A stretch of DNA of 64,000 nt from Escherichia coli (GCF_003018235.1 NZ_CP027437.1); one strand, 5' to 3'. Positions 21,950 through 43,394 are shown, numbered from the stretch's first letter. Notes: generated by a model from the sequence alone, not told the origin. Made by a program: numbers and translations.

Positions 21950-24232
<2,283 letters not shown>

Positions 24233-25913
24233 CCCAGGCACGAGTCTTTGTCATCATTACCTGTGGTTCCAGTGTCAATTGCCCATCAACAAAACTGACA
24301 AAGCCAGAAACCAGACACACGGGGTCGTCTGTTTGTTGCAAAAGCGCCGCCATGCGTTCAACGGCATAAGGCGCGCTGGCTGAGGCTGGCAGTGATAACG
24401 TCAGCAGATTATCTTCACCTTCGCCGCTGATTACCTGCGCATCCAGCGTCTGGCGGCTGCTATCCCAACCGAGCGAAATACACTCAGCGACCGGCAGAAT
24501 AAATAAGTTATCGACCTGATTAAGAGGCCGTATGCAGGCGGGGGGGCGCTGGTGTAAATATTCCCGCAAAGCCACAATGCCCGGCTGGCGTAACGGCGCG
24601 CTCAACATTTGCCAGGCAACAGGCGACAGCGGCACAACGCTGCTTAATCGGTTGCGGGTAGCTAACAGCAGCTCGCCATCGGCACTGCGTTTTGCTGCTT
24701 GTGAAATAATTTGCCCGCCCGCCAGTGCGCCAGCCTGAAAACTAAACAGCCGACGCGTAGCTGCCGGTGAGTTTTCCTGTTCACTTCGCGGCCAACTGCG
24801 CGAAAGGTGCAAAATACTGCCGGTGTCGGGATCGGTAAACCAGATGCGTAAACCATAATGCTCAATATCCTGCCAGCAACGCATACCTAAAGACACCAGC
24901 CGCAGATGATCAAGCTTTGCTTCTCCGGCAATGCCAGAGCCAACGACCGTGCGCCACGGCACAGGAGGAACTTCACCAACACTGTCGCGCCGGGCCATCT
25001 CTTGTGCGCAATTTAATCGACTGTTTAATGCCGCAAGCTGACGTAAGCATTCTCCGGTATGATAGTGGCTGGCGCGGGCGTGGAAGGCATCAACGCTGGC
25101 GCGCAGTTGCCGTAGCGATTCACTCACCCATCGCCAGTTGCAGCGTTCCGCTGCTTGCTGCGCGCGGCTGAAAGCGGCCTCGTAGTGAATAAGCGGCTGG
25201 CTGATGCCGCCCAGCCATAATGCCTGGCTTAGTTGCTGAACATATTGACGACACGTTTTGCCTTCTTCGCTGGCAAACGGATCGTCAGATGATGTGACGT
25301 GTTCGCTGCGCATCTGCCAGATTAAATGAGTCAATTCCGCTTGCTGCGCTTTTGCCTGGACAAAGGCCTGTACTGCCAGTACGACATGTTCGCAAAGTGT
25401 GCCTTCAATACAATCACAACGGGCGAAACGAATGCTGCTACGGGAATAAAAACGCACATCGCTCATCGGTAAGCGGGCAGAGGGAATTTCGCCCGGCGTA
25501 CAGAACAACTCAATGGTGATGCCTTTAGCGACCAGCGCCTGTGCGCGTTTGCGGGTGGTATCGGGCAGGGTAGCCAGTTCTTCCAGCCAGATTGCCGGAT
25601 CCCACTCTTCTTCTTTTTCCGTGGGCTGGACGGTGGCACAAAGTCGTTGATAACTTAACACCAGCATCACGCGATGACGGCACATGCCGCTGGCCCCGCA
25701 GGTGCACTGAGCCTCTTTCAGTGCCTGGCCGTTCGCCAGCTGGGTACGGACACCGTCACTGAAGGTGGCGATTAAAGCGCCGTTCTCATGGCTGATTTCC
25801 GGGACGTTGCCATTTTCCAGTTCCTTAAGGCTGCGCTTAACAAAACCGGCATTGCTTAACGCCGTCAGGGCCTGCGGTGTCAGTTCTAATAATTCCGGAC
25901 GTAGTGAATTCAT
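24233..25913 (-). pseudogene. yehQ: yehQ 5' portion (SWIM zinc-finger protein), truncated by the IS100-like insertion
   Basis: ORF 24213..25937; start ATG complement 25911-25913 overlaps the yehP stop (ATGA); SWIM-type Cys/His motifs CTCGASGMCRHRV and CDCIEGTLCEHV; the last six codons plus stop derive from the IS end. Confidence 0.8.
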
Positions 25914-27046
25914 GACTGAAGATTCTCCGCAAGCCATGATGCCAGTTCGCCCGGTGTCATGGCGGCTATTTGTGCGCCGACATTAACCAGCGCCTGGGCC
26001 GTATCGCGGTCATAGCAAGGCGTTGCTGTGCTATCGAGCGCTGCCAGTCCCAGCACTTTGATGCCGCTCTGGACACACTTTTTCACCTGATGCGTCAGCA
26101 ATGATGATGAACCTCCTTCATAAAAATCGCTCACGAGGATAATGACGCTTTTTGCTGGTTGTTCAATAAGTTGCCGACCATACTCCACGGCACTGGCGAT
26201 ATTGGTCCCGCCGCCCAACTGTACTTTCATTAATAACTCTACCGGATCGGCAACGTCTGCCGTGAGATCAACGACGCTTGTGTCAAACGCCACCAGATGG
26301 GTACGAATGCCGGGTAACTGCCACAAACAGGCCGCCATCACCGCAGAGTGGATCACCGAATCGACCATCGAGTCGCTTTGATCAACCAGTAAGACCAGTT
26401 GCCATTGTTCGCTTTGGCGTTTAATGCGGCTGTTAAAGCGGGGGGATTCGATATACAACTTGCCGTGTTGCGGGTGCCAGTGTTGCAGGTTGGCGCGCAG
26501 AGTACTTTTGAAATCAAAGTTTCGCGCCAGTGGAATAAATGAGCGGCGACGGCGATCGCGGACACCAGAAAAAGCCTGACGAACTTCCTTTGCCAGTCGA
26601 GCCATAATTTCTTCAACAACCTGGCGCACTATCCGGCGGGCGGCAGCCAGTACTTCGGGATTCATCAGATGTTTGGTGTGCAAAACGGCGCGTAGCAGGC
26701 TTTCAGAAGGCTGCATACGTTCCAGCACGTCGAGATTCGTCACCACATCTTCAATGCCATAGCGCAGTACGGCATCGCTTTCCAGCCGCTCAATCACCTG
26801 TTGCGGAAACAGCGTGTGAATACTGTTGATCCACTCAGGAGTGGTGAGATTTGAGCCACCTAATCCACCAGAGCGTTCACCACGCTGGAGCCGTTCAGGA
26901 TCGCGCCCATACAGCCACTCCAGCGCGTGGTCTATCTGCCGGGCGTTGTCATCCAGCCCACAAAGCGTCGTTTCTGCCGCTTCGCCAAGAATTAATCGCC
27001 AGCGTTGTAGCTCACGGGTGGTCAGAAGATCGTTCAGTTCAGACAT
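25910..27046 (-). CDS. yehP: von Willebrand factor A (VWA) domain protein
   Basis: ORF 25910..27274; start at MSELNDLLTTRELQRW, 378 aa; MIDAS-like motif LLVDQSDSM (DxSxS). Confidence 0.88.
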   Translation of the reverse strand: MSELNDLLTTRELQRWRLILGEAAETTLCGLDDNARQIDHALEWLYGRDPERLQRGERSGGLGGSNLTTPEWINSIHTLFPQQVIERLESDAVLRYGIEDVVTNLDVLERMQPSESLLRAVLHTKHLMNPEVLAAARRIVRQVVEEIMARLAKEVRQAFSGVRDRRRRSFIPLARNFDFKSTLRANLQHWHPQHGKLYIESPRFNSRIKRQSEQWQLVLLVDQSDSMVDSVIHSAVMAACLWQLPGIRTHLVAFDTSVVDLTADVADPVELLMKVQLGGGTNIASAVEYGRQLIEQPAKSVIILVSDFYEGGSSSLLTHQVKKCVQSGIKVLGLAALDSTATPCYDRDTAQALVNVGAQIAAMTPGELASWLAENLQS

Positions 27047-29318
27047 GGAAAACTCCCCAGTGTTGCAGCGATGCCAGTGCCTGCTGTTCGAGTTGTTGAT
27101 GATGTGCAATGGCTTGCGGAGGACAATGCAACGGCATTTGCAGCGCTGAAACAGGAAGCTGCGCAAGCTGGTAATGCTCAAGCACCTGATGCGCCAGTGT
27201 CCCGCGTTCTCGTGGCGGTAGCCAGGCCATCGCCGCGCGCAAATCGGGCAGGGCGTTAATAAAATCGTCGTCACTCAGTTGATTTAAATGACTACTGAAA
27301 CCGGCGATAAATGCTGGTTGGCAGGCCAGTTGATGACGGGCGAGCGCCAGCAAACCGTGCAGCGCCTCGCCGGATTGTGCCGGGGATAACTGCGCCAGCA
27401 TCGTCAGCGCCGCTTCGGCACTGGCGTTGGGATGTTCCAGACGCATCAGTGCGCCAAGAGCCGCGCCGCGATCCAGCGCCGGGACATGAATCGCCTGACT
27501 GCGTCGCTCCAGTAAGGCTACCGCCGCAGAAAGCGAAACGCCGGGTAAATTAACGCCGCTATGTAGATCGCGCAGGATATGGCAAAGCGCCTGCCAGCTA
27601 TGCAGGTGAGTGTGAAACTCCTTTTCATCTGGTCTGCCGTTAGATTCACACAGCCACAGCGTGCGATCGATAGCCGCGCATAACGTCGTTTGTAATATCT
27701 GCGCGCTTTGCATACCGCTAATTTCATCCAGCCGCCATAAGGCATATAGCACTTCCAGCGCCTGGCCCATTTCGGCAAATTGATTTTCCTGGGCGATTAA
27801 TAATGTGAGTTGCTCCAGTAATTGTTGACTGAAGGACGCCAGACCCGCTAACGCCGCCTGGCTTAGACATGCGGTAATGCTGCCGATTCCACCCGCGTCC
27901 AGCATATCGGCTTCTAATTTATTGCGTGCGGCTTCCTGGAGCGTGGCACCAAAGCAGGCGGCCTCAATTAATGCCGCATGCTGGCTAAGCGGGCGGGTTA
28001 ATTTCCAGCGTTCTTCACCGTTGCCTGCAAGTGTCAGTGTGCTTCCCTGCTGGCGTACAATCCCTGGGATCTCCAGTATTGCCAGCCGATGTAACACCTG
28101 ACTTTGCGCTAGTCCATTGGGGTTAAAGCGATTTAAGGTAAGCTCCGCCGGAAGGGAGATTGCGGTACGTTCCAGTTCGCAGGTGACATCTTTTGGCAGA
28201 GGCGGTTGTGGCGTAGAAGGGGCAAGTTTACCGAATCCGTCACCCGCTAATGTGTCTATCAACGTTAGCAGAATCGGATCGGTATCGGGATGAATAATGC
28301 CGCGATAGCTCCATGGCAACGGCGCATTCAGGGCTTCTTTAATCAGCGAGCCTGCTAAGGCATCCAGCCAGTCAGTGCGTAACGGCAGTGTATGACCGCG
28401 CAACTGTGCCAGCGCCATCGCATGCAGATGAGCGGCAGCCATATCCGCGGTCGAAGCAGGCAAGTGGTGTTGGCGCAAACGGGTAAGAACCGTTTTTAGC
28501 AGTTGTTCTCCCGCCTGCTGTAAGCCCCACTGCCAGCACCAGCTTTGCCAGACCGGGGCAGGCATTCCGGAAAGGTATCCTGCCAGCACATCAAGGCGCT
28601 TTTCACTGTAGGGTGTGAGATAACAACCTGTAACGGCATCTGCCAGCGACGGCAATTCTGGCGTGTTAATTTCCTGCGGACATTCGCGCCACATTTTTGC
28701 CAGTGCCGGAGCGTGCCAGCCACCGCAGACAACTAACACGTCGCCATTATTTTGCTGCACCGCCCATGCAATCCAGCGAGCCATAAAGGCTTCGCGCTGA
28801 CGATTGAGTGCATCGCCGGGGAAATCGCCCCGCAGTTGGGCAAAATAGTGTGCCAGTGCAGAGGGTAATGCAGTTTGCTGGCTTTCATCTTCGAACAAGT
28901 GATCCCACAGGGTATCGCTGTTATCCATGCGGGCGGCACGCAGCAGCAAGGTCTGGCTTTCCTCTTGCGTATCAGGCGAATCGTCCTCTTCTTCACTCTG
29001 TGCCCAGCAAGGCAAATCGATGAAGTAAGTTTGTGCCTGAATACGACGAGCGGCTTGTAGCGCCTGCCACTCCGGCGAAAATTCAGCAAATGGCGTCCAG
29101 GCACCACGCCCGGGGGCTGCACCGTCCTGATACTGGCAATAACTGTAAATAGCTACCGGAAGCTGGTGGGCTAAAAACAGTTCGTCTACCCGGTCATTAA
29201 AATCAGCCGGGCCTTCAATCAACACGTATCGTGGCCGCTGGCTTTCGATTAACGATTTCACCAGCCGGGCGCAGGCCGGGCTATGATGCCGGATGCCGAC
29301 AATTAACGGCTCGCTCAT
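27039..29318 (-). CDS. yehM: Large uncharacterised protein of the yehLMPQ cluster
   Basis: ORF 27039..29486; start at MSEPLIVGIRHHSPACARLV, 759 aa; overlaps the yehP start by 8 nt. Confidence 0.85.
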   Translation of the reverse strand: MSEPLIVGIRHHSPACARLVKSLIESQRPRYVLIEGPADFNDRVDELFLAHQLPVAIYSYCQYQDGAAPGRGAWTPFAEFSPEWQALQAARRIQAQTYFIDLPCWAQSEEEDDSPDTQEESQTLLLRAARMDNSDTLWDHLFEDESQQTALPSALAHYFAQLRGDFPGDALNRQREAFMARWIAWAVQQNNGDVLVVCGGWHAPALAKMWRECPQEINTPELPSLADAVTGCYLTPYSEKRLDVLAGYLSGMPAPVWQSWCWQWGLQQAGEQLLKTVLTRLRQHHLPASTADMAAAHLHAMALAQLRGHTLPLRTDWLDALAGSLIKEALNAPLPWSYRGIIHPDTDPILLTLIDTLAGDGFGKLAPSTPQPPLPKDVTCELERTAISLPAELTLNRFNPNGLAQSQVLHRLAILEIPGIVRQQGSTLTLAGNGEERWKLTRPLSQHAALIEAACFGATLQEAARNKLEADMLDAGGIGSITACLSQAALAGLASFSQQLLEQLTLLIAQENQFAEMGQALEVLYALWRLDEISGMQSAQILQTTLCAAIDRTLWLCESNGRPDEKEFHTHLHSWQALCHILRDLHSGVNLPGVSLSAAVALLERRSQAIHVPALDRGAALGALMRLEHPNASAEAALTMLAQLSPAQSGEALHGLLALARHQLACQPAFIAGFSSHLNQLSDDDFINALPDLRAAMAWLPPRERGTLAHQVLEHYQLAQLPVSALQMPLHCPPQAIAHHQQLEQQALASLQHWGVFHV

Positions 29319-29328
29319 GCATCTTTCC

Positions 29329-30417
29329 TCACGGCAGGCGGTGGCGGGCTTGATAATAAGCCTGCCAGTGAGCTTCTTTATGTGTGGCGACTCGCTGTTC
29401 GAAGTAACGGCGCAGACGAGCGCGATCTTCTTCGTTATCTTTGACGATGGTTCCGGCAATACAGTCCACCAGATCGGCTGGCTCACCTGCGCGATTCGCT
29501 AAAAACCAGGCGCGGACGCCCACAGCGTGGGCCACGTTCACGGCTTCAGCGGTGGACATAATCGCTGTTAGTGTATCCATTGACGTTTTCTTTTCGCCGT
29601 TGGCACGCAGATCGCGGAAGGTGCGGACCAGTAACTCCAGTACCGCGTCAGGCACTTTATGCGGAATACCGCTATGGGCCAGCAAACGCGCCGAAGCACT
29701 GGCGACAAGCTCCAGCTCCTGGGCGAAATCCATAATCGGAAAGACAGTTTCAAAATCGAAGCGACGCTTTAGCGCGGCACTCATCTCATTGACGCCACGA
29801 TCGCGCGTATTGGCAGTGGCAATAATATTAAAGCCTTCTCGCGCATAGAGCTGACTGGCTTCACCAGTGAGTTCCGGCACCGTCATCACCCTGTCAGAAA
29901 GCATACCTAACAGACAGTCTTGCACTTCCAGCGGTGTACGCGTTATCTCTTCAAAACGGACGATTTTGCCGTCGCGCATTCCCTGGTAAAGCGGGGCAGG
30001 GACCAGCGCTTCCGTTGATGGACCATGATTGATAAGCAGGGCGTAGTTCCAGCCGTACTTGATTTGATCTTCGGTAGTAGATGCGCCGCCCTGGATGGTT
30101 AACCCGGCATCGCCGCTAATAGCGGTTGCCAGTAATTCAGACAGGAGAGATTTTGCGGTGCCAGGTTCCCCCACCAACATCAAACCGCGTCCGGTGGCAA
30201 GAGTGACTAACATACGTTCGACAGCGGAGGGACTAATCACCACTTTACGGCTAATATTTTGCGCGCTATCGCCAAGGATAAAAGCACGGGCCGCAGGCAA
30301 ACTTAACTGCCAACCGGGCGGGCAAGGTGCGTTATCATTTTGTTTTAATTTTGCCAGTTCATCGGCGTATAACACAGCAGCAGGCGGACGCTGCAGATGA
30401 TTATTCTGCGGTGACAT
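29329..30417 (-). CDS. yehL: MoxR-type AAA+ ATPase
   Basis: ORF 29329..30483; start at MSPQNNHLQRPP, 362 aa; Walker A GEPGTAKS, Walker B-like region. Confidence 0.88.
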   Translation of the reverse strand: MSPQNNHLQRPPAAVLYADELAKLKQNDNAPCPPGWQLSLPAARAFILGDSAQNISRKVVISPSAVERMLVTLATGRGLMLVGEPGTAKSLLSELLATAISGDAGLTIQGGASTTEDQIKYGWNYALLINHGPSTEALVPAPLYQGMRDGKIVRFEEITRTPLEVQDCLLGMLSDRVMTVPELTGEASQLYAREGFNIIATANTRDRGVNEMSAALKRRFDFETVFPIMDFAQELELVASASARLLAHSGIPHKVPDAVLELLVRTFRDLRANGEKKTSMDTLTAIMSTAEAVNVAHAVGVRAWFLANRAGEPADLVDCIAGTIVKDNEEDRARLRRYFEQRVATHKEAHWQAYYQARHRLP

Positions 30418-30528
30418 ATATTCATCCCTGAAATGTATTAATGAAATAAACGATATTTTACGCGCAATAAATGTTTGGCGCATTAGTTGTTTGAGCGAAA
30501 AATATCTGGAAAGCAGATCACAGTAAAT

Positions 30529-30625
30529 AAAAAAACCTGCTGGTGAGGCAGGTTCTTTTATTTACTATTTTCAGGCCTAACACCACAGCCTGTGCAACAT
30601 CGTGTTCCAACGAACGAATTATAAC
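30529..30625 (-). ncRNA. orzO: Candidate Orz-like antitoxin sRNA (copy 1), ending in hairpin acctgcctcaccagcaggt + U7
   Basis: Minus-strand intrinsic terminator at 30529-30552; body contains about 20 nt (complement of gcaacatcgtgttccaacgaacg) able to pair with the leader of the adjacent toxin mRNA (30757-30782). 5' end not determined. Confidence 0.5.
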
Positions 30626-30849
30626 CACGGCTGGACCCCGTTGCAATTAAGATAATGAGATTTATAATCCAGACCGTTGGGACGTTGCGCCGGATCGAAC
30701 CTATTTCAAGTCCTGGCTACCGGACGGGTGGTGCTGCAGGTGGTGCCCTGATCCGGGGTGCAACATCGTGGTCCAACATACGTAAACCAGTATCGACAGG
30801 CAGTGTAAGGGTAAGGTGCTGGTGTTGCGCTCCTTAATAAGAAGAGCGG

Positions 30850-30939
30850 ATGGACACGCTGACACAAAAGTTAACCGTGCTCATTGCTGTACTGGAGCTA
30901 TTAGTGGCTCTGTTACGGTTGATTGATTTGTTGAAGTAA
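30850..30939 (+). CDS. zorO: Type I toxin, Zor family: 29-aa hydrophobic peptide MDTLTQKLTVLIAVLELLVALLRLIDLLK
   Basis: Hand-translated; SD-like AAGAG upstream; followed by terminator hairpin; sequence matches my memory of ZorO from E. coli O157:H7. Assignment of O versus P to a given copy is arbitrary. Confidence 0.75.
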   Translation: MDTLTQKLTVLIAVLELLVALLRLIDLLK

Positions 30940-30960
30940 CGGGCAAATTGAAACGCATCT

Positions 30961-30989
30961 AAGGGGGAAAACCGCTTCCCCCTTTAATA
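30961..30989 (+). terminator. Intrinsic terminator after the toxin gene (aagggggaaaaccgcttccccctt + T-rich)
   Basis: Seen in sequence. Confidence 0.55.
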
Positions 30990-31134
30990 AAATGATTACT
31001 GTTTTTATTAATTCATCATATAACTCATTTTTATTTATAAATTCATCGATTTTATATTCAACGCACCATTTGACCGGGATGTGAATATTTATGGTGGGCT
31101 ATTGGCAAAAAATATCTGGAAAGTAGATCGCAGA

Positions 31135-31230
31135 AAATAAAAAAACCTGCTGGTGAGGCAGGTTCTTTTATTTACTACAGTGACGCTAACTTGCTGATTG
31201 TGCAACATTTCGTACCAACGAATAAATTAT
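31135..31230 (-). ncRNA. orzP: Candidate Orz-like antitoxin sRNA (copy 2), same terminator as copy 1
   Basis: Terminator at 31135-31164; pairing segment (complement of gcaacatttcgtaccaacgaata) matches the leader of toxin copy 2 (31367-31391) but differs from copy 1. Confidence 0.5.
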
Positions 31231-31656: not shown

Positions 31657-31974
31657 TTATTCTATTTCTTGGTTGAATATATTCTGTAGTTCACGATTAA
31701 AAATTGCTATTACAGTTTCAGGTGATTCACCTCGTAATTTCCGCTCATCAATACACTCATCTCTTATATAAATCAACGCATCATTTATTAGCGGGTCAGC
31801 ATCTTCTCGATCACGTTGATGAAATGTTGGATGTAGCCGGAATCGCTCCAGTCGATAGACGGAACCTGTAAATAATTCAGAGCATTTATGGATCTCAAGT
31901 CTGAAGGAAAACGGATCTTCAGGTACAGGGACCTCATAATCGTAAATAGCAACCAGCTCTTTTTGCACGATCAT
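31657..31974 (-). CDS. yehK: Uncharacterised small protein (105 aa), AT-rich gene
   Basis: ORF track; position between yehI and the zor/orz units. Confidence 0.8.
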   Translation of the reverse strand: MIVQKELVAIYDYEVPVPEDPFSFRLEIHKCSELFTGSVYRLERFRLHPTFHQRDREDADPLINDALIYIRDECIDERKLRGESPETVIAIFNRELQNIFNQEIE

Positions 31975-32034: not shown

Positions 32035-35000
32035 TTAATGGAAAATGACGTCAGGTGCGCTTAACGCCTCACTCAAATCAAACACATCAAGTTCGGCAAA
32101 AGTGACGGATTTATTGTCACGGTACACTCGAAGAGAACGGAAGCTCATTAGCGCTTTGCTATCAACATTGTAGTGGTTAAAACCGGGTGAAAACTTAAGG
32201 ACCAGCCGGTACTCACCCAGGTCATAGACAAATGCGTCCTCATAGCCTGACTCCCAGCCTTTGTATCGCATTCCCATAAGTTGCCCAACGGTAGCGGATT
32301 TACCTTCCCAGCGAGTCAGGCTGTTACTGGTTGACTCGTCAGGTGTGAGCAGCACCGTGCGGCGCGACAACTGGCGAAAAGGCGGCATAATTTCGTAATC
32401 GGCAAAAAGCTGTGCAAATTCACTGCGCATTTCTGCTGTCATTTCTAACGGGTGGGCAATGCCAATCAGAGCATCCGCAGGAAGGTCAATGGGCTCATCC
32501 TGCGCATTGCAGAACTCCCCCTCTGCGGCCACACGAAAGGCGTTGAGTAAACGACGCGGTTCATTTGCCGGATAAACCCCCCATATTAATCGCTGGGTAA
32601 CCAGGCGGGTAAAGGGATGATTAACAAACAGAGAATGAAAATCTGCCAGCGACCAGCGTCGGGTGGTACGTAGGGCAGCTTCAAGACGCGGGAGCAGGTT
32701 TTTGCTCACCTGAGTAGCATCTTTTTTTAGCCCTTTTAGTCGGGCCAGTGCCTCGGGCGCTTTTAGTTGATCGTCATCGGCACGCAACCGGGGAACGCTT
32801 TTCTGGCGAACGTTTTGTTGATCAAAGGTAACCGGGTTGAGGTTTTCATCGAAGCGAACGGTAAACTGCCGGGGACCAAAATCAAAAATCAACGCCTGCG
32901 GATCATCAAGACCCAGTGTTGGGACTAATCTGTCCGCTAACTCTTCCTGGCTTAGCCCGCGATTTTCTGCGACCACCTGAAGAAATTCCGCTGCGTTTTC
33001 ACGTAATGAAGAGGATTTCGCCCGTTGTGATACATGATGCAGCTGTATCAGCGCCATATCATTATTCATCAAGGTAAGTATATTCAGACCAATGACAGCA
33101 CGGGCAGATTTGCCTTCTTGTGGCCAGGCGAGGATCTGTGTCGTCAGATCCCGAGCCGTGCTTTCGTCACCAAAGAGACTTAACGCCAGAAATGCCCAGT
33201 TGTCTTTTGCGGGGGCACCAGCTTGTTGCCACGCAGTGAAGAGATCCCAGGCAAAAGCGGCCAGCGTTTGTGGCTGGCAAAACGTTTTCAGTTGTTCCAG
33301 ACCGCTATAAAAACGTCCGCCCTGGGTAAAGCGCAGCATTTCGCCGATAATTTCCAGAGCGTCATCGGTAACAGGCTGATTATTAGTGATAAGTCGCGGC
33401 CTGGACCACATTGCCGGATGCCAGAAATCAGGGGCTTTTGGAATGCGTGCCGGGTAAATGTCCATTGGACCCTGTTTAAGCAACTGCTCCAGGGCAGGCC
33501 ATACATCAGCGCGTTGCCAGCGGTTTGCCACGGTTTGCAGCAACTCGCCATGTCCCTGTTCGTACAGTAAACGCAGGGCAAGTAATGCGGCTTCGCTATT
33601 ATCGCTGGGTTTGGTAAAGACAAGAGGGATAAGTGCAGTAGCCGTATGTTCCGGCCATTGTAAAATCCACTGGCGAGCCAGATCACGCTGCACCGCGAAA
33701 CGTCGCCAGACGCGGGCAACGGGCAGGGCCAGTTCTGTTGCGCCAAAATTTAAAATTAACGGAAATGTTTCTTTTGGACGATGTAAAAAAGCCAACATCA
33801 GACCTGGTAGCGCATCCAACCCGAGGATACTGAGAAAATAGTCCTCACCCGCGAACAGATGTTTTTTCTCATTGATACGCAGCCAGAAGGTCAAAGCCAT
33901 CTCACGCGGCAACTGTGCCAATAAATACAGGTTCCAGACACTCTTTTCCGGACGATAACGTGAGTAGTTGTCATTTTCCCATATGTTAATTAACGCTTCT
34001 TCGTGACCGCTGCGAAGCGCCTGTTCTGCTAATTGTGCTTCCGGGGAGTTCCAGCCATTCAGGATCTCTTCAACCCGTCCCTGGTAGTAATGCCACTGAA
34101 CAATGAGTGAATTGCGTGCAGCATCCAGTTTTCCGGGGAGTATATAATTCAGAAACAGCCATACATCATCCCCAAAACCCAGTTCCTGTAATACAACTCG
34201 TCCACTTTTTTGTTCCATGCGTTCCGCAAGAGATTCCGTGCTGAAATAACGGGCAGACTCAGTGGCGGCAAGCCTCTCTTGTTCGCCTGGTTGCCAGTAA
34301 ACTTGCGGGGTTAATTCGAGCGGTGCCAAATCAAGACGTGGAGCTGTCATTTTTTTCTTACTACGCCACGGTGGTGAAACGAGGATTTCAGGCAGATTGC
34401 TGTTATCGGTGCCATCAATAACCGGTTTGGGCGGTGCCAATAAATAACTATTCAGTACTGCCCGGGCTTGAGTACTTAACCACTGCATCACCTCTTCTGC
34501 CAGTTGTGTCTGCGATGCCATCAGCGTTTGTAACAACGTACGCCAGTATTCATCTCGAGCTTTTTGCTGGGCAGGCAGCTTTTTGTCTTCGATGATTGGA
34601 TAACCAGGGCGGGCTGGTGGTTCTTTTAACGCCAGCAGTTCTGCCAGTGCCGCGAGCGTCGCGTGGGGGAAGTTTTTACTGTATTTAGCCACACGTTGCA
34701 GGCTGGGTTTGTTTTTATCAGCAACTAACAGCAAGGTGCGGATGACTTGCGGATGGTTAATTTGTACCAGCAGACTGCCGCAATCTTCTTTATGGGCATA
34801 TATCGCGAGGCGCGGAACGACTGCCAGTCCTTGTTCGCGCAAAAGGGCAGCGCAGGCCGCGTAGCCGAAGTGGTTTTCATGCGACATGTAGCTGGCTTCT
34901 CGATCGCTAAATATATCCTGGCTCCAGTAGCGTTCGAGTTTTCTCACCGCTTTGGGGTCAGTAGCAACAACTTTTAACCACTCCTTAGAATGAAAATGAG

Positions 35001-35667
35001 TCCGCGGGCATTCAAGGCTTACCAACTCATTGGCGATTTCTGGTTTTTCGGGGAGGATCAGCGCAATAAAAGGGCGGCGAACTTTGGTTATTCCTGGCAG
35101 TGCGGCAATGAGTTTGTCGGCGCAACGCTGCCAGCAGCTTTCCTCTGCCAGAGAGAGGTGTTTACGCAGTCGGAGATCGAATTCGTTATAGGTTTCTGAG
35201 CGATAACCATAGCCATAGTCCTCGTTCTGATACTGCAATGTGACTACCAGAGGATCACTCTCATAACACCGTGCAATAAACTGGCGTGCAATCACCACCT
35301 CAGTCGCATATTCCAGCCCCTCTTGTTGGACGATTTCGTCGAGCAACTGTTGGCTGTCATTTTGCGCGATACAGGCTAGCGCCGCCATTGTGCGGGCCGG
35401 GACTGAGGGTTTGTGTTCGCCGATCAAGTTGATGGCCTGCGTAATGGCGGACTGCCACTCCAGTGAAAAATTTTCATAACGCCAGACAATGTTTTTTTTC
35501 TTCTCAGCTTTTTGTAGCAATTCATCACCCAGTGTCTGAATGATGCTTTCAGTGATAACAGGCACCGGTTCGCCCGGCCATTTGCGATGACTGAGTGGTG
35601 TTTTGCCTTTTTTATATTTCAGTTCCAGTTGGGCGTTATCCGCCAGCCACGGTAATTCCTTGTCCAT
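32035..35667 (-). CDS. yehI: Giant uncharacterised protein (1210 aa), molR/yehI family (DUF4132-like C-terminal region), lacks the N-terminal WGR domain
   Basis: ORF track 32035..35667; paralogous to the two upstream genes over most of its length. Confidence 0.88.
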   Translation of the reverse strand: MDKELPWLADNAQLELKYKKGKTPLSHRKWPGEPVPVITESIIQTLGDELLQKAEKKKNIVWRYENFSLEWQSAITQAINLIGEHKPSVPARTMAALACIAQNDSQQLLDEIVQQEGLEYATEVVIARQFIARCYESDPLVVTLQYQNEDYGYGYRSETYNEFDLRLRKHLSLAEESCWQRCADKLIAALPGITKVRRPFIALILPEKPEIANELVSLECPRTHFHSKEWLKVVATDPKAVRKLERYWSQDIFSDREASYMSHENHFGYAACAALLREQGLAVVPRLAIYAHKEDCGSLLVQINHPQVIRTLLLVADKNKPSLQRVAKYSKNFPHATLAALAELLALKEPPARPGYPIIEDKKLPAQQKARDEYWRTLLQTLMASQTQLAEEVMQWLSTQARAVLNSYLLAPPKPVIDGTDNSNLPEILVSPPWRSKKKMTAPRLDLAPLELTPQVYWQPGEQERLAATESARYFSTESLAERMEQKSGRVVLQELGFGDDVWLFLNYILPGKLDAARNSLIVQWHYYQGRVEEILNGWNSPEAQLAEQALRSGHEEALINIWENDNYSRYRPEKSVWNLYLLAQLPREMALTFWLRINEKKHLFAGEDYFLSILGLDALPGLMLAFLHRPKETFPLILNFGATELALPVARVWRRFAVQRDLARQWILQWPEHTATALIPLVFTKPSDNSEAALLALRLLYEQGHGELLQTVANRWQRADVWPALEQLLKQGPMDIYPARIPKAPDFWHPAMWSRPRLITNNQPVTDDALEIIGEMLRFTQGGRFYSGLEQLKTFCQPQTLAAFAWDLFTAWQQAGAPAKDNWAFLALSLFGDESTARDLTTQILAWPQEGKSARAVIGLNILTLMNNDMALIQLHHVSQRAKSSSLRENAAEFLQVVAENRGLSQEELADRLVPTLGLDDPQALIFDFGPRQFTVRFDENLNPVTFDQQNVRQKSVPRLRADDDQLKAPEALARLKGLKKDATQVSKNLLPRLEAALRTTRRWSLADFHSLFVNHPFTRLVTQRLIWGVYPANEPRRLLNAFRVAAEGEFCNAQDEPIDLPADALIGIAHPLEMTAEMRSEFAQLFADYEIMPPFRQLSRRTVLLTPDESTSNSLTRWEGKSATVGQLMGMRYKGWESGYEDAFVYDLGEYRLVLKFSPGFNHYNVDSKALMSFRSLRVYRDNKSVTFAELDVFDLSEALSAPDVIFH

Positions 35668-35676: not shown

Positions 35677-38600
35677 TTATTCAAACAGGGCTTCAATATC
35701 GTTAATTAGCTCGCTGGCGGTGATGGCATCGAGTACGGAGAACTGCGCTTCCTGTGTTGAATTACTCCCCCAGCCATAGCTTTCCGCTTTGCCTTCCCAT
35801 AGCCACAGCTTGCTTAAGAGCTGCTCAGCGCTAAGTTCGGCTGGTGACATACCCACCGCAAAACCTTCGTCGATTTCCATGATTAACGACCAGCGACCGA
35901 GAGGTTTGATCATCCAGCCGATCCAGCCTCCATCCTGCGGGGTGCCCTTTATCCAGCCTTTATTCGCCAGCCCCATTACCCGACCGCTCGGGCATTTTCT
36001 GCCTGCCCAGCGGGTCAGTTCGCTGGCATTGCGCTCGGTTTCTGTCAGGGCGTAACTGTTACGGTCGAGCTGGCGGAACGGCGGTAGCAGTTCGTAGTCG
36101 GCAAAAAGCTGCCCAAATGCGGCGGCATCCGTCGGTGATATTTCCAGAACGTGAGGAATACCAACAGAGATATCGCCTTCCGGCAGGGTGAAAAGATCAT
36201 CGTCAGCGGTGCTGTAGCTGTTATCTTCCGCTACCCGGAAACAGGCCAGTAGCTGGTTGTCGGCGCTATAAACGCCCCAAATCAGACGGCGGGTTAAGTG
36301 GCGAACCAGCGGATGCACAACCAGGAAGAGTTGGAAGTTTTCCGGCGACCAGCGGCGGCGCAGGCACATGGCGGATTCAAGCCTTGCCACCTGCTGGGCG
36401 GCGACGGTACGCGCATCTTTTTTCAGCAGTTTGTAGCGGTTAACAGCATCGTTCGCCTGTGATTCATCATCGCTTTTGTTTGGTTTGGGCAGGTCTTTCA
36501 GACGGCTGCCGGAAGCGTCACGCACAAACGGTTTTAAGGTTTCATCAAAGCTGACGGTGAACTGGCGTGGGCCGAAATCCAGCAGCAACGAACCGTTATC
36601 ATCCAGACCGAGATCTGGTGCTAACTGATCTTCAAGCTCCGCCACCGTGAGTTCGCGACTTTCAGCAATGTCGGCAATTTTTTCTTTCGCCCGCTCCTGT
36701 AAAGCTTTGAATTTCAGTTTCTGAGCAATGCCGTTAAGCTGCATCAGAGCGATATCACTACCGATAGCGGCGAGGATATCAAGCCCGACGGTGGCGCGTT
36801 TATGCTGGGATTCACCAGGCCAGGCGCGTATTAATGGCGTCAGTTTGCGGGCGGTGTCATCGTTACCAAGAACGCCTAACGCAGCGAACGCCCAACTCTC
36901 TTTCGACGGCGCGCCCGCAGTCAGCCAGGCGGTAAACAGATCCCAGGCAAATTCAGCCAGTGAGTCGGCGGTACAGGCATCTTTCACCTGCAATAATCCC
37001 GGATACAGTGCCTCTTCCTGAGGGAAGCGGAGCATTTCACCGAGGTGCTGGAGTGCGCTATCGGGCAGTGATTGGGCGTTTGCTTTTAATACCGGGCGCG
37101 TCCAGAGCGATGGCTGATAAAAGGCCGGAAGAGTGGGGATTTTTGTCGGGTGATTATCTAAGGGATCGAGCGCAAGCAGAGCGTTCATCGCGTCTGTTAC
37201 TTCCGGCTGGTTATAACGCCGGGCGATTTCTTGCAGTAATGGCTGATGACCGTTTTCGCTAAGCATACGCAAGGCAGCGCGGGCGTTATCCTGTGCTTCA
37301 CCGGCTTTGCCGAGCGCGGCAGGCAGCAGGCCGGTAATGGCGTGTTCCGGGTATTTCAGCAGCCAGCTACGGGCGTCTTGTCGTAGGGTTTTGAGTTTGT
37401 TGAAGGCGCGGGCAATGAATGGAGCCAATTCGACAGCCGCGAAATATTGTGCCACGGGAAGAGCTTCCTGCGGATAGCGAGATGCTGAGTGGATAAAACC
37501 TGTTAAACCAGCAAGTCGAAGATGCAACATTACTTGTTTTGCACCTGTATGTGGTTCTTTACTAAGGATATTCCACATCTCAATAGCTTTATTTATGGGT
37601 AAAACATGGAGTGAAGAAAGCTTCCATTCGCCCTGATAAGGGGCGTTATAGGACTTAAAAGCATCGATCAAAGTTAAATAATCTTCACGCTGCCAAGCAT
37701 CCAACGCTATTTCTGGAATATCAATATAGCCTCTATGTTTGTTCCAATCCCAGCGGTCGAATCCCAGGGAATTCAGAAAACCTTTTTCTCCCTCTGCTTG
37801 CTGACGAGGTTGCCAATTATGCTGCACTTGAAGTCTTTTGCTTTTTGTTTCATTTATTGTACAGAAAGATTCCAGGGGTAATGGTGCTAAATCCAGCACT
37901 GGAATCGGCGATTTTTTCTTTTTAGCCTGCCACGGCGGTGAGACTAATACGGCAGGCAGCATATCGGCGTTCGCATAAACTGAAGGTTGTGTTAGTTGTT
38001 GCTGGCATGACTTAAGAACGGTAACTGTCGGGGCAGATAGCCAGGAGATCACCCCTTCTACTAATGTTGGTTGTGAGATAAGCATCGTCATTAGCATCAT
38101 GCGCCAGCGCTTTTCATCTTTTTGTGCCAGAAGTTCTGCTAATGCCGCCAGCGCTGCATGTGGAAAGCGAACGAAAGCCTTTGTCATGCGATCGTGGCAA
38201 CGCTTTCCCTGCTCACTTGCATGGATAAGTAGTGTAAGTGCTTGCGGGTGGTTGATATGCATCAACACTTCCCCACATGTGTCACCAGCAGCGTAAGGGG
38301 CAAAACGGGCCAACGCAGCGACACCTTGCTCCTTGAGTACTGTCGCACACCAGATTTTACCGCCGTAATAATCATCAAATACCTGCCCTGGCTGTCCTGG
38401 ATAGTATTACCCCAGTTCTGCCAATACCTGCTCGTCGGTGGTCGTCAGTTTTAGCCATTCCAGCGCATATACCCCTTTTTGTCCGCAAAGATGTCTGGCA
38501 ATCTCATGAGCTACTTCTGGTTTTTCCGGCAACAATAGTGCGACCAGCGGCTGGTTCCAGGCGGGCATGTTTCCGAGAGCGGCAATCAGTTTGTCGGCGC

Positions 38601-39435
38601 AGCGCTGCCATACATCGTCATTTGCAAGTGAGAGATGCTTACGCAGGCGCATTTCAACCGAAGCGAAGCGTGACAGATAGTCAGGCTGCTTGTTATCCGG
38701 GGTAAAAGTAATGAGGTGGGCATCATAATTCCAGTCAAATCGGATGAATTGCAATGCGATGACAACCTCAGTGGCATATTCCAGACCACCTTCCTGGACA
38801 ATTTGATCCATTAACTCTTCGTGATCGTTACGATTGAAGCCTTGCTCCAGCGCAACCAGTACCGCCAGAACCATCGGTAGTAGTGTGGTGCTAATCGGCG
38901 AGTCGATAAGGCCCACTGCTTGTGTAATCGCCTGCTGCCAGTCCAGTGAACAGGTGCTGTAATTGAAGGTGATCACCTTTTTAAAACGCCGGTGAGTATT
39001 CGCGGCGACGGAGCGTAGCAGGGTTAATTCATTCTCCTTTGGCACAGGATCGCCAGGCCAGCGTCGATGACTTAGTGTGGTTGGCGCAACCTCTGTCGGT
39101 AAAATGATTTGGGCGTCGTCTGCCAGCCAGGGGAGGTGGTCTCCAGTCAATGCTGGTTTGTCTTGTGGCAAAGGGGCTATTTCAGGGCATTCGATAACCT
39201 GGGTGGGTACAGATGTCGGTGTCATCACGGATACTTCTTCTACGTAGCCCTTTTTTGTTTTCTCCGCAATCAGCTTCAGTTCCGCTTTTTCCGCCGCCGC
39301 AGTATCTGCAAAGCTTTTTACCTGACTTTGCCCGTTAGTGCCAACTTTACCCCAGGTTATATGCAGTTCGTTTCTCTGCTGTTCCACCGCCCAGAATTTA
39401 TGTGATTTTTCGTCCTGATAAATATAGGTTTTCAT
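35677..39435 (-). pseudogene. molR/yehI-family paralog with N-terminal WGR domain, interrupted by a single in-frame TAA (complement of 38407-38409)
   Basis: ORFs 38407..39435 (342 aa) and 35677..38313 (878 aa) are in the same frame with no other stop between them; about 1252 codons if read through. Confidence 0.7.
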
Positions 39436-39447
39436 TGCTAAATCCTT

Positions 39448-42400
39448 TTAATCAAACAGTGATTCAATGTCGTTAATCAGCTCGCTGGCGGTGATGTCGT
39501 CGAGCACGGAGAAAGTGGGTGAGGATTGTTTACCATAGCGATCATAAGGGGCGGTGATTTTTACGCTTTCGACAGGCAGCAGGTCGCTATACCCCGTTTC
39601 GCCATAAATTAATGAAAAAGGTTCTGTTTCAAGTTCGAGAGCACCATAAGGGGTAAATTTGCGCATCGCATAGACGCTGCCGCTTTCTTCCAGACGTTGC
39701 CAGCCTCTGCGTTCCAGCCCGACAATGCGTCCGGCCTGGCAGAGACGTCCGTTCCAGCGTGACAATTCATGGACATTACGTTCGTTATCAGCAAGGTGGT
39801 AACTACCACGTTCGAGCTGTTGGAAAGGGGGAAGCAGTTCGTAATCAACGTAAATTTGCCTGAATGCAGCGGCGGATTCAGGGGGGATTTCCAGCACATG
39901 CGGTATACCGATGTTTCCTGCTGGCAGCGTGAATAACTCATCCTGCGCATCGCTGTAAGTGCTGTCTTCTGCCACGCGAAAACAGGTGATAAGAGCGTTT
40001 TCATCGTTATAAACCCCCCATAACAGCCGTCGGGTTAAGTGACGTACCAGCGGATGCTCCACCAGAAACAGGCGGAACTGCTCTGCCGTCCAGCGTCTGC
40101 GCTGGCACATAGCCTGTTCCAGACGATCAATCTGCTGGCTGGCTATGGCGCGTACATCTTTTTTCAACTGTTTGAAGAGATTAACCGCGTCAGTTGCCTG
40201 AGTTTTTTCATCGCTCTGGTTTGGTTTGGGCAAATCTTTCAGGACTTTGCCGTTTGCGTCGCGCACTACAGGTTTTAAAGTTTCGTTAAAACCAACGGTA
40301 AATTGACGTGGGCCGAAATCCAGTGTCAGCGAGCCACTGCTATCAAGCCCTAAATCCGGTGCCAGGCGGTCTTCCAGTTCAGCCATAGTCAGCCCACGGT
40401 TTTCAGCGACCATGTTGATTTTGTCGCTGGCATGTTCCTGCAATGCGGCGAATTTAATTTTTTGCGCAATGCCATTAAGCAGCATCAGCGCAATATCACT
40501 ACCGATACTGGCTAACACATCCAGCCCGTAAACCGCGCGTTTATGCTGGGATTCACCCGGCCAGGCGCGGATGAGCGGGGTTAGTTTACGCGCGGTGTCG
40601 TCATTGCCTAGAATCCCCAGCGAGGTAAATGCCCAGTTTTCTTTTGCGGGTGCGCCAGCTTCTGTCCATGCCGTGTAGAGATCCCAGCCAAAGTCAGCCA
40701 GTGATTCGCGGGTGAAGGTCTCTTTGATGATCGCCAGCCCAGCGTAGGAGGTAATGTCGCGTGGAAAGCTCAACATTGTGCCGAGGTGGCGCATAGCGTC
40801 ATCTGGCAGAGGCAGGTTGTTACTTTTAAGCCGAGGTCTGTGCCATAAGGTGAACTGATAAAAGCCGGGCAGTGGGGCGATTTTTGCAGGATATTCTTCC
40901 AGTGGGTCGCTATCAAATAATGTTGCCAGCGCAGCTAAAACATCAGGTTGATTATATCCTTGGGCGATTTCCTCAATCGTTTCTCGCTGGTTTAATTTCA
41001 CTAGCAGGAGGAGTGCCTGGCGGGAATATTCCCGATTTTGGCACGGTTTGCCCAGCGCCAAAGGTAGTAGCCCGGCGGCGGCATGGCGCGGGTTATTTGC
41101 CAGCCAATTAACGGCATCCTTGTAACCCATTTTTTTCTGTAACCGCTGCGCCATTGGTAAGGCTAGGTCACTGGCCCCAATAAAGAGGGTGAATATCCAC
41201 AGTCGTTGATGATCTCGTTGCAAGCAGGTCATAAACGCAGGAATGGCCGTACTGCCAAAAATCCCCAGAATCTCTTTCTCACCTGAATATCGCTCCTCAA
41301 TGATTATTTGGTTGAGAAATGAAATCGCCTGTTGTCCCGGTAAGTAACAAAGCGCAGATAGATTCCAGCTTTTGTTGGCATTGTTGTGATATTTCGCAAA
41401 CTCAACTTTTAGTGCTGGAAAATCAAAGCGCAACAAGGCATCAACAGCGCTTTGCGGTATATATTTTTTTTCATGTAAGTCATCTTCGCAATGCAGCCAT
41501 TCATTAAAACCTAATTGCCAAAGGATTTGTTGTTCTGGTGTAAAAGGAATGAAAGATGTCTCCCAGCTTTCTTTTTCAATTAGTGGCAGTTCGGTAAATA
41601 AGGTTTGCTGTGATGCCTGATATTGCGCGATTTCATAGAATCTGGATATGTCAGTATGACTGATTAACTCTGTAATTCCTGGTGTGATATCCGTGACGGC
41701 AGGGATGGGAAGTACCGGCAAATCAAATACGGGTATTACATTCTTTTTCTTATTTATTACCCACGGTGGAGCGACAAACAGCTCTGGCAACATATCCGCA
41801 GTGGCATATTCACATTCTTCAGCGACTGACTGCGGACGACATTCAGATAAGATGCCAGCGGCTTTGGCATTAACCCAGGGAATGACGTCGCATACTAACT
41901 CTGGCGTGATGGTAATCAGTTTGATAAGTGCGTTGCGCCACTGTGCATCTTCATGTATTGCCAGCAAAGTTGCATAAGCGGCAATAGCCGCAGCGGGATG
42001 TTTTTGGCAGGCTTTGCTTAAGTATTCCAGGTGCTTTTTCTTGCCATTTACACCGAGGATCAGAATCTGAATCGCATCCGGGTGATTCGTTTTCCATAGC
42101 CATTTGACAAGATTTTCAGTCTCGCTGTTGCGCTCGAAAAGATAAGTGGGATTGTCAGAATGCTCTTCCGTAAACTCAAGAAGGATCTGGCTTACACCCC
42201 GAATTCCATTATTCGCCAGCAACATTGCCAGATAAGCGCGAAAATTACGAAAATCACGATACAACGGTGGGAAGTCGTATTTTTCCACTGTAGTCAGAGC
42301 AGTATCATCGGTTATCACCAGTCTTAACCAGGTCATCGCCGGAACGTTTTGATCTGCATAATGTAGCGCCATAGCATTGGCGATATCCGGGCGTTCAGGG

Positions 42401-43254
42401 ATCAGTAACGCCGCAAAAGGTTGCCGTGCTGGGGATAGCGAGGGAATAGCCGCGAGTACCTTATCTACACAGCGTTGCCACTCATCTTCTGAAGCGAGTG
42501 AAAGATGATGACATAGACGTTGATGCCAGTTCGGTAGCGATTCTGCTTTGAGATCAGGGGGAATGATGGTGGTGACGTCGGCTTTTACTGGTTTATATCT
42601 AAGTTGAAGAGCGAGAAGGGCAATTTCAACGGCACTTTCCAGACCACAGCGAATGACTAAGTCATCGACCAGTTCATCTGCAGAGTAAGAGTTCCAGAAA
42701 CTCCAGAGCAATGCTGCATCAGATTGCACACTCCCTGTCTGTTGATTACCCTGAACTCGCATTTGTAACTCAGCAAAAGCCTGCTGCCAGTTTTCTGGAT
42801 AAGAACGGTAATTGTTGGCGGGATCATATGCTCTGGTGTTATTCGCGATGAGCTGCCATATTTGACCATCTTTGTGCAGATAATTGATCTCTCTGGGGCG
42901 AGAGCGATGAGGAAAAGCAAATCGATTAATATCGTCAGTTAGCCGAATGACCGCATCATCAGCCAGCCAGGGGCGTTGGTTTTTACTCTCAGGGGAAGTT
43001 TCAACTTCAGGAGTGGCTTTGGTAATGGGGGGGATATGCACGTTTGCTGAAGCATTTTCCACATAGCCTTTTTTCGTTTTCTCCGCGATAAGATTCAGTT
43101 TCGCTTTTTCCGCTGCTGCAACATCAGCAAAATTTTTTACCTGGCTTTGCCCTTGGGTACCAACTTTTCCCCAGCTGATATGCAACTCGTTTCCCTGCTG
43201 CTCCACCGCCCAGAATTTATGTGATTTTTCGTCCTGATAGATATAACTCTTCAT
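39448..43254 (-). CDS. molR: Giant WGR-domain protein (1268 aa), molR family; appears intact
   Basis: ORF track; N-terminus MKSYIYQDEKSHKFWAVEQQGNELHISWGKVGTQGQ (WGR-like). The K-12 counterpart is remembered as a pseudogene. Confidence 0.8.
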   Translation of the reverse strand: MKSYIYQDEKSHKFWAVEQQGNELHISWGKVGTQGQSQVKNFADVAAAEKAKLNLIAEKTKKGYVENASANVHIPPITKATPEVETSPESKNQRPWLADDAVIRLTDDINRFAFPHRSRPREINYLHKDGQIWQLIANNTRAYDPANNYRSYPENWQQAFAELQMRVQGNQQTGSVQSDAALLWSFWNSYSADELVDDLVIRCGLESAVEIALLALQLRYKPVKADVTTIIPPDLKAESLPNWHQRLCHHLSLASEDEWQRCVDKVLAAIPSLSPARQPFAALLIPERPDIANAMALHYADQNVPAMTWLRLVITDDTALTTVEKYDFPPLYRDFRNFRAYLAMLLANNGIRGVSQILLEFTEEHSDNPTYLFERNSETENLVKWLWKTNHPDAIQILILGVNGKKKHLEYLSKACQKHPAAAIAAYATLLAIHEDAQWRNALIKLITITPELVCDVIPWVNAKAAGILSECRPQSVAEECEYATADMLPELFVAPPWVINKKKNVIPVFDLPVLPIPAVTDITPGITELISHTDISRFYEIAQYQASQQTLFTELPLIEKESWETSFIPFTPEQQILWQLGFNEWLHCEDDLHEKKYIPQSAVDALLRFDFPALKVEFAKYHNNANKSWNLSALCYLPGQQAISFLNQIIIEERYSGEKEILGIFGSTAIPAFMTCLQRDHQRLWIFTLFIGASDLALPMAQRLQKKMGYKDAVNWLANNPRHAAAGLLPLALGKPCQNREYSRQALLLLVKLNQRETIEEIAQGYNQPDVLAALATLFDSDPLEEYPAKIAPLPGFYQFTLWHRPRLKSNNLPLPDDAMRHLGTMLSFPRDITSYAGLAIIKETFTRESLADFGWDLYTAWTEAGAPAKENWAFTSLGILGNDDTARKLTPLIRAWPGESQHKRAVYGLDVLASIGSDIALMLLNGIAQKIKFAALQEHASDKINMVAENRGLTMAELEDRLAPDLGLDSSGSLTLDFGPRQFTVGFNETLKPVVRDANGKVLKDLPKPNQSDEKTQATDAVNLFKQLKKDVRAIASQQIDRLEQAMCQRRRWTAEQFRLFLVEHPLVRHLTRRLLWGVYNDENALITCFRVAEDSTYSDAQDELFTLPAGNIGIPHVLEIPPESAAAFRQIYVDYELLPPFQQLERGSYHLADNERNVHELSRWNGRLCQAGRIVGLERRGWQRLEESGSVYAMRKFTPYGALELETEPFSLIYGETGYSDLLPVESVKITAPYDRYGKQSSPTFSVLDDITASELINDIESLFD

Positions 43255-43394
43255 CCGCGTTCCCTGTATTTATATCCAGTTATAAGCGGATGCTAGCAGT
43301 TAATGAAAAAAATTAAGAGCGTTGAACAAACAAGAAAACAACTTTAGGAATTTATAAAGAAAAGGCGCTGTCGATGCAGCGCCTTGAAGGGGGA

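Follow-up and report, generated by a model that had tools for sequence, protein, structure and literature searches.

The yehL, yehM, yehP, and yehQ genes of Escherichia coli were analyzed in a stretch of 64,000 nucleotides (nt) of NZ_CP027437.1 (GCF_003018235.1), referred to here as the window. Judged from sequence and gene order, yehLMPQ is the motor-and-adaptor core of a widespread five-family MoxR/VWA machine, whose DUF4132 component is supplied in the window by MolR, a molR pseudogene, and YehI. Our tentative explanation, to which we give slightly less than even weight, is that this Yeh system is a DNA-damage-response remodeling machine. The object itself is known, as the genes are annotated and YehL is the namesake of one of seven MoxR subfamilies (PMC3893208). 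The five-family definition, the predicted folds of YehM and YehQ, and the finding that LexA-, DdrO-, and PafBC-type control meet on one system appear to be unreported in the literature searched.

The four genes and the motifs and domains found in their products, all on the minus strand, are as follows.

29329..30417, minus strand: yehL, MoxR-type AAA+ ATPase of the YehL subfamily, 362 amino acids (aa)
30148-30171, minus strand: Walker A motif GEPGTAKS of YehL, from translation
29938-29961, minus strand: Walker B motif VRFEEITR of YehL (residues 153-160), with Glu-Glu in place of the usual Asp-Glu
27039..29318, minus strand: yehM, DUF5682 protein, 759 aa
28599-29318, minus strand: N-terminal TraB/ChaN/TIKI-like alpha/beta domain of YehM, about 240 residues
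25910..27046, minus strand: yehP, CoxE-type VWA protein with a complete metal ion-dependent adhesion site (MIDAS), 378 aa
26369-26383, minus strand: MIDAS motif DQSDS of YehP, from translation
26173..26188, minus strand: +1 frameshift cassette GTGGAGTATGGTCGGC of yehP, an exact, unchanged match in the window
24233..25913, minus strand: 5' part of yehQ, codons 1-560, with the start at 25913
25674-25706, minus strand: SWIM1 motif CTCGASGMCRH of YehQ, residues 70-80
25386-25418, minus strand: SWIM2 motif CDCIEGTLCEH of YehQ, residues 166-176
24233-24923, minus strand: tandem oligonucleotide/oligosaccharide-binding (OB)-like region of YehQ

A preliminary description of this DNA had proposed four translationally coupled genes on the same strand at 24233-30417, with an 8-nt overlap at yehM/yehP and a shared ATGA at yehP/yehQ. 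All four genes were found on the minus strand, the 759-aa product it listed is that of yehM, and both overlaps were seen at the junctions; the yehL stop codon and the yehM start codon are separated by a 10-nt gap. The overlapping junctions are consistent with translational coupling of the yeh genes. The left end of the proposed span, position 24233, is the junction with an IS100 element, and the end of yehQ lies elsewhere. The description did not mention that yehQ is interrupted by IS100 in the window. Translation verified the Walker A motif of YehL, the DxSxS motif of the VWA protein, and the two SWIM-like motifs of YehQ. The hidden Markov model (HMM) searches against Pfam agreed with the proposed domains (AAA_5, 2.6e-34; DUF5682, 1.6e-99; VWA_CoxE, 2.4e-71), the SWIM matches being weak (1.3e-3 and 0.21). 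Of 5,426 complete E. coli genomes, 5,336 (98%) carry the yehL-yehP segment, which is core, single copy, and located on the chromosome; its best complete RefSeq match over 25910-30417 was 98.7% identical, and none reached 99%. The same description had assigned the operon no function. This held for E. coli in the literature searched, in which yehL, yehM, yehP, and yehQ are only list entries and DUF5682 is mentioned by no paper, but the genes are less obscure than it implied, given the MoxR subfamily name, the silencing of yehL and yehM by H-NS/StpA in K-12 (PMC3686432), a reported frameshift site, and the related ddrTUVWX operon of Deinococcus.

Upstream of yehL, the window contains an array of DUF4132 genes.

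39448..43254, minus strand: molR-like WGR-DUF4132 gene, intact, 1268 aa, first in the array
35677..39435, minus strand: second WGR-DUF4132 paralog, split into open reading frames (ORFs) of 342 and 878 aa, probable pseudogene
32035..35667, minus strand: yehI, DUF4132 gene without WGR, 1210 aa, the closest DUF4132 paralog to yehL
31657..31974, minus strand: yehK, 105-aa ORF between the DUF4132 genes and yehL

MolR matched Pfam WGR (3.3e-17) and DUF4132 (5.4e-50); its WGR domain is of the PARP type, and the region matched PDB 2ra8 at 1e-16. YehI matched DUF4132 (3.1e-47) and was 31 to 38% identical to the two upstream paralogs, the three tandem paralogs (35677-43254) being 31 to 48% identical with gaps of 12 and 9 nt. 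The equivalent of the split paralog is annotated as a pseudogene in RefSeq.

The neighborhoods of YehM relatives were annotated with Pfam in Burkholderia, Serratia, Klebsiella, metagenome, and actinobacterial contigs, and about 90 loci drawn from a species-representative genome scan were annotated with custom HMMs. A YehM relative was present in at least 556 species-level genomes. Across the roughly 90 loci, the order [WGR-]DUF4132 (one to three copies), YehL, YehM, YehP, YehQ was near-invariant, and 40 of them had exactly WGR, DUF4132, L, M, P, Q. This five-family order spans Enterobacterales, Burkholderiales, and Xanthomonadales of the Proteobacteria, Myxococcota, and Actinomycetota, and fusions of DUF5682 with VWA occur among the homologous loci. 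The comparison showed the composition of the machine: the four genes stood as a conserved core with the order L-M-P-Q, but not as the complete unit, as the upstream WGR/DUF4132 genes belong to it in these loci from three phyla. Klebsiella has a contiguous six-gene operon at the same chromosomal site (metG ... yehR, yehS, btsRS), whereas in Escherichia yehK and a 1.2-kb zor/orz segment are inserted between yehI and yehL. Since yehK is missing from the contiguous operons of Klebsiella and Serratia, it is unlikely to belong to the system. Tandem DUF4132 copies, one to three in number, are also seen in Massilia, Lentzea, and Glycomyces, among others. One contig (L008, GCA_022841245.1) carries two complete systems in tandem at 3227-23468, the first with a 1180-aa DUF5682-VWA fusion and the second with a HEAT_2 protein upstream in place of DUF4132. 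In an actinobacterial contig (L009, 1-8820), the system adjoins a Pup-proteasome cluster (Pup ligases, Pup, and proteasome ATPase) and a WYL-domain gene.

YehL has the features of a MoxR AAA+ ATPase, namely, an AAA_5 P-loop, Walker A and B motifs, and sensor and arginine-finger residues. Among 86 homologs from three phyla, GEPGTAKS, VRFEEITR, TAN (sensor-1), and KRRF were kept at 95% or more, and more than 150 of 362 positions were at least 95% conserved. Its gene is paired with a VWA gene, yehP lying two genes downstream, and the L-M-P order was found in the roughly 90 loci. In a PDB sequence search, the closest solved relatives of YehL were the AAA modules of Midasin; no match was found for YehM, YehP, or YehQ. 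The MIDAS of YehP is complete, with D222xS224xS226, T281, and D307 at least 95% conserved in 83 homologs, and an N-terminal region of about 150 residues is also conserved. Between E. coli and Actinomycetota, identity was 62% for YehL, 58% for YehP, 37% for YehM, and 27% for YehQ. A +1 programmed-frameshift site has been reported in yehP (PMC2790909), and the predicted +1-shifted product would be without the last MIDAS aspartate, D307.

The structure prediction suggested for YehM and YehQ gave a candidate fold for each protein. The YehM model (predicted local distance difference test [pLDDT], 84; predicted template modeling [pTM] score, 0.77) consists of the N-terminal domain followed by a helical-repeat scaffold of about 500 residues. 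Residues 1-240 are predicted to have the alpha/beta fold shared by the TIKI/TraB/ChaN/erythromycin-esterase superfamily; unlike that superfamily, this domain is fused to the helical scaffold. No match of YehM to TraB or related Pfam families was obtained at E values of 10 or less. Residues R10, H11, H12, E35, H51, E83, D101, R175, E176, G199, and H202 are invariant down to 29% identity, and H11, E35, R175, E176, G199, and H202 are invariant in 33 sequences. These include two GxxH motifs (G8-I-R-H11 and G199-G-W-H202) with the conserved E35 and R175-E176, although G8 is invariant only in a closer set of 28 sequences and falls below 90% in the set of 33. Two GxxH motifs with partner glutamates constitute what we take to be the TIKI/TraB signature, and YehM is accordingly regarded as a probable hydrolase. 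Besides two SWIM modules, the YehQ model, built from an intact ortholog (pLDDT, 87.8; pTM, 0.84), contains a four-helix bundle and, at 331-561, a region rich in beta structure, with a helical bundle at the C terminus. The SWIM signature (CxCxnCxH) occurs twice in YehQ as CxCx5CxH; in 17 sequences, down to 18% identity, SWIM1 is invariant and SWIM2 is at least 90% conserved. The top Foldseek matches of YehQ were all tandem OB DNA binders (E values, 8.5e-4 to 1e-2; probabilities up to 1.00), comprising the HIN domains of p202 and MNDA, which bind double-stranded DNA, RPA70 DBD-A/B, which binds single-stranded DNA, and Teb1, LEF-3, CST, and POT1. The model thus predicts that YehQ carries an RPA70/HIN-like tandem OB module.

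The control signals around the system were then compared between lineages. In the window, a LexA site precedes the DUF4132 array.

43264..43279: LexA (SOS) box CTGGATATAAATACAG, 8-9 nt upstream of the molR start codon

The sequence CTGGATATAAATACAG is the only AT-rich CTG-N10-CAG in the 64-kb window, and molR appears in a list of E. coli genes known to have an SOS box (PMC6590174). In Klebsiella grimontii and Klebsiella aerogenes, the same box, as CTGGATAAAAACACAG, lies at the same distance from molR, and the operon continues uninterrupted into the yehLMPQ homologs. A second line of evidence comes from Deinococcus. The ddrTUVWX operon of Deinococcus deserti (SWIM, unknown, MoxR, unknown, and CoxE-VWA) is strongly radiation induced in an IrrE-dependent manner, with a DdrO operator (the radiation/desiccation response motif, RDRM) upstream (PMC5552922, PMC6300522, PMC9510100). 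Like the Yeh system, this five-gene operon encodes SWIM, MoxR AAA+, DUF5682, and CoxE-type VWA proteins, in the order SWIM-DUF5691-AAA-DUF5682-VWA, so that AAA, DUF5682, and VWA follow each other as in the Yeh system. DdrV, DdrW, and DdrX of Deinococcus taeanensis are full-length homologs of YehL, YehM, and YehP, respectively (E = 1.6e-129, 1.5e-105, and 4.8e-112). The Deinococcus operon contains no WGR protein, and its control is by DdrO/RDRM rather than LexA. On D. taeanensis plasmid p_TS293_3 (L092, 4712-4728), a palindrome-like site, TTACG-N7-CATAA, precedes ddrT by about 30 nt, flanked by a TTGACA-like hexamer on one side and the start codon on the other. Its sequence is similar to that of the DdrO operator in what we take to be the consensus of the latter.

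A third signal was found in actinobacteria, where 34 loci (700 kb) were scanned for a PafBC-type site with at most one core mismatch to TGTCRGTG-N8-TAnnnT, which we assume to be the consensus of the RecA-independent promoter RecA-NDp (PafBC). The scan gave 14 matches, compared with 1.6 ± 1.5 (maximum, 7) in dinucleotide shuffles. Of these 14, 12 were on the operon strand, and every one of the 12 lay in an intergenic region immediately before a WGR/DUF4132 gene or yehL. Two such motifs in the actinobacterial contig L009 (6576-6597 and 15079-15100) precede an HNH/DUF222 gene and a DUF4132 gene following the SWIM gene. No paper linking PafBC to SWIM, MoxR, or VWA genes was found in the literature searched. 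Three evolutionarily unrelated regulators of the DNA damage response, namely, LexA, DdrO/IrrE, and, by promoter motif, PafBC, appear to be wired to the same system.

An action on damaged or single-stranded DNA is suggested by the WGR, SWIM, and tandem-OB modules of the partner proteins and by the damage-inducible expression, and a DNA damage role is moderately supported. In the explanation that we tentatively prefer, recruitment of the machine to such DNA would fall to the WGR/DUF4132 proteins and to YehQ with its SWIM and OB modules. There, a YehL hexamer, using ATP, would pull via the MIDAS of YehP on a protein or nucleoprotein complex, and YehM would scaffold the assembly and possibly hydrolyze the extracted target. 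We infer the pulling and cleaving steps, the former by analogy with Midasin, CbbQ-CbbO (CbbQO), and NorQ-NorD (NorQD). If this explanation is true, it would add a new ATP-driven activity to bacterial DNA damage responses, provide a role for the orphan ddrTUVWX genes of Deinococcus, and account for molR, which has been unexplained in the SOS regulon since 2000. A testable hypothesis is thereby available for yehLMPQ, one of the larger blocks of E. coli core genes that lack an assigned function. A more specific version, in which a DNA-damage-induced "segregase plus protease" extracts DNA-trapped proteins and hands them to the YehM hydrolase, has in our estimate only a small chance of being correct. 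In that version, the WGR, SWIM, and tandem-OB modules would bring the YehL-YehP puller to lesions, and the targets would be DNA-protein cross-links, poisoned topoisomerases, or stalled complexes. It would be a prokaryotic functional counterpart of p97/Cdc48 with SPRTN/Wss1, extending from E. coli to actinomycetes and Deinococcus.

Several observations weigh against a DNA-damage-response remodeling machine. In the window, no LexA-type site precedes yehI or yehL, and the LexA box lies about 13 kb from yehL, with two OrzO terminators of the zor/orz segment between them. Searches upstream of the operon in Serratia, Erwinia, Burkholderiales, and Xanthomonadales detected no LexA box of the E. coli type. 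The RecA-NDp-like motif precedes only 11 of the 34 actinobacterial operons, and its consensus is one that we presume. In Deinococcus, DdrU is a DUF5691 protein where the Yeh system has DUF4132, and DdrT is a SWIM protein of 466 aa, which is shorter than YehQ and matches it weakly; hhalign comparisons of DdrU and DdrT with DUF4132, YehQ, and YehM showed no relationship (probabilities below 4%). The presence of DUF5691 instead of DUF4132 and the shorter SWIM protein mark ddrTUVWX as a sister of the Yeh system rather than the system itself. Finally, yehL and yehM were reported as silenced by H-NS/StpA rather than as SOS induced (PMC3686432).

The pairing of an AAA_5/MoxR gene with a MIDAS VWA gene, as in yehL/yehP, is shared with RavA-ViaA, NorQ-NorD, CbbQ-CbbO, and CoxD-CoxE, which act on known enzymes encoded nearby (nitric oxide reductase [NOR], Rubisco, CO dehydrogenase, and Nuo/Frd). 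In contrast, the Yeh system has DUF5682, SWIM/OB, and WGR/DUF4132 proteins as its conserved partners and no conserved target enzyme beside them. Midasin/Rea1, whose AAA_5 motor pulls via a MIDAS and strips factors from a nucleoprotein particle, has a logic in common with the Yeh system; however, it is a single polypeptide of 4,700 to 5,000 residues acting in ribosome biogenesis, whereas the Yeh system has separate subunits and DNA-type modules. Searches against NCBIfam gave only subthreshold matches to GvpN, MadB, McrB, and cobaltochelatase.

An alternative that we consider unlikely, though less so than the segregase version, is that the genes form a MoxR-vWA "thresholding" conflict system directed against phages or mobile elements. 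In that case, the WGR/DUF4132 paralogs and YehQ would act as sensors of invading DNA, the MoxR-VWA pair as the gate to activation, and the YehM hydrolase as the effector; induction by DNA damage would reflect prophage induction or an SOS alarm. The ternary systems described by Kaur, Burroughs, Iyer, and Aravind in 2020 have a CoxD-CoxE-derived MoxR-vWA pair with extra conserved components and are enriched in multicellular bacteria (actinomycetes and myxobacteria), in which the Yeh system is also abundant. The one to three tandem DUF4132 copies with their fast divergence, the silencing of yehL and yehM by H-NS, as is frequent for horizontally acquired genes, and a weak bpMoxR match of YehL (0.0021) also favor this alternative. 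However, the four third components that define those systems (VMAP, iSTAND, FtsH, and a beta-propeller fused to vWA) are all missing from the Yeh system by Pfam, as are hypervariable effectors, the 2020 study names neither SWIM nor YehL, and PADLOC models matched none of the seven proteins. In E. coli and Klebsiella, the genes are core, single copy, and syntenic, with housekeeping or metabolic neighbors and no defense island. The motor pair is 58 to 62% identical across phyla, which is unusual for arms-race genes, and almost no matches were found on phages or mobilizable plasmids. The least likely explanation among those weighed is that of a MoxR/VWA maturation chaperone for metal or cofactor insertion, like CoxD/CoxE/CoxF, NorQ/NorD, and the CobS/T/N and BchI/D/H chelatases, with a target possibly tied to molybdenum metabolism as the old name molR implies. 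The full-length VWA_CoxE match of YehP (2.4e-71), the weak matches of YehP to cobaltochelatase and of YehL to GvpN/MadB, a PHROG family annotated as "porphyrin biosynthesis" that YehL matches, the resemblance of the YehM N terminus to the heme-binding protein ChaN, and the molR annotation as "molybdate metabolism regulator" point in this direction. Class I chelatase and CoxDEF-type systems, however, have a CobN/BchH subunit or a target metalloenzyme nearby, which was absent in all inspected Yeh loci; in the roughly 90 loci, no conserved metalloenzyme, CobN/BchH-like subunit, or cofactor-pathway gene adjoins the operon. The conserved partners instead bear the DNA-type modules WGR, SWIM, and tandem OB, three DNA damage regulons converge on the system, and the molybdenum genes of Deinococcus radiodurans do not respond together with its WGR and DUF4132 genes.

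A further alternative concerns this copy of the operon rather than the family and is compatible with any ancestral function: in this genome, the operon may be a decaying, transcriptionally silent remnant without current function. We regard this as improbable, somewhat more so than the conflict system and less so than the segregase version. The IS100 in yehQ, the split DUF4132 paralog, the H-NS/StpA silencing of yehL and yehM in K-12, and the interval between the OrzO terminator and yehL, in which no consensus promoter was found, are in accordance with it. Furthermore, yehM and yehL are deleted in Shigella sonnei lineages, and another strain has an independent IS100 in yehQ. On the other hand, yehL, yehM, and yehP are full length with all catalytic motifs intact, the operon is kept in 98% of complete E. 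coli genomes, and the remnant of yehQ is in frame, which indicates a recent insertion.

Phage sequences were considered separately. The PHROG matches were not taken to indicate a phage origin; they are full-length, near-identical singleton families, indicating host genes swept into prophage annotations. The sole match among 50,697 phage records was a 27%-identical YehM relative at 11208-12770 of MT835988.1, an unannotated 14-kb "Bacteriophage sp." contig from human feces, which is possibly a misbinned bacterial fragment.

The segment inserted between yehK and yehL consists of the following elements.

30484-31656: yehK-yehL spacer with two tandem repeats of about 500 bp, 87% identical, each a zor/orz type I toxin-antitoxin module
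30850-30939 and 31458-31547, plus strand: identical 29-aa ZorO-like ORFs, MDTLTQKLTVLIAVLELLVALLRLIDLLK
30529-30604 and 31139-31212, minus strand: OrzO-P small RNAs (Rfam RF02083), 99.9 and 88.8 bits

The contiguous operons of Klebsiella and Serratia lack this spacer. In the window, the insertion separates yehLMPQ from the SOS-controlled molR-yehI-yehK unit and, with its terminators, probably uncouples yehLMPQ transcriptionally from the molR SOS box.

At the other end of the operon, yehQ is interrupted by an insertion sequence.

22279..24232, minus strand: IS100 (IS21 family), a 1954-bp insertion by BLAST against the intact E. coli locus
23124..24146, minus strand: istA, 340-aa ORF of IS100
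22345..23127, minus strand: istB, 260-aa ORF of IS100
22279-22306 and 24205-24232: terminal inverted repeats of IS100, 28 nt, imperfect
22273..22278, with a second copy at 24233-24238: 6-bp target-site duplication CCCAGG
21950..22272, minus strand: 3' remnant of yehQ, the last 107 codons, encoding the C-terminal helical bundle

The assignment to the IS21 family (IS100) follows from istA and istB, the terminal inverted repeats, and the target duplication. The encoded YehQ is truncated after residue 560 of 667, with six IS-encoded residues appended; when the two halves were joined minus one copy of the duplication, a 667-aa ORF was restored (666 aa in intact E. coli). Because IS100 removes the C-terminal helical bundle of YehQ and the zor/orz insertion probably uncouples the operon, the Yeh system is probably crippled in this genome. 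This IS100/yehQ insertion site was found in none of the 5,426 complete E. coli genomes. The 566-aa entry P0334 of Shigella flexneri was considered as the same truncated YehQ but proved to be a partial sequence. The independent IS100 insertion in the other strain is at a different site in yehQ and is annotated in RefSeq as IS100/IS100kyp, and the exact truncated YehQ product was matched only in the read assemblies SRR18191694 and SRR13421124.

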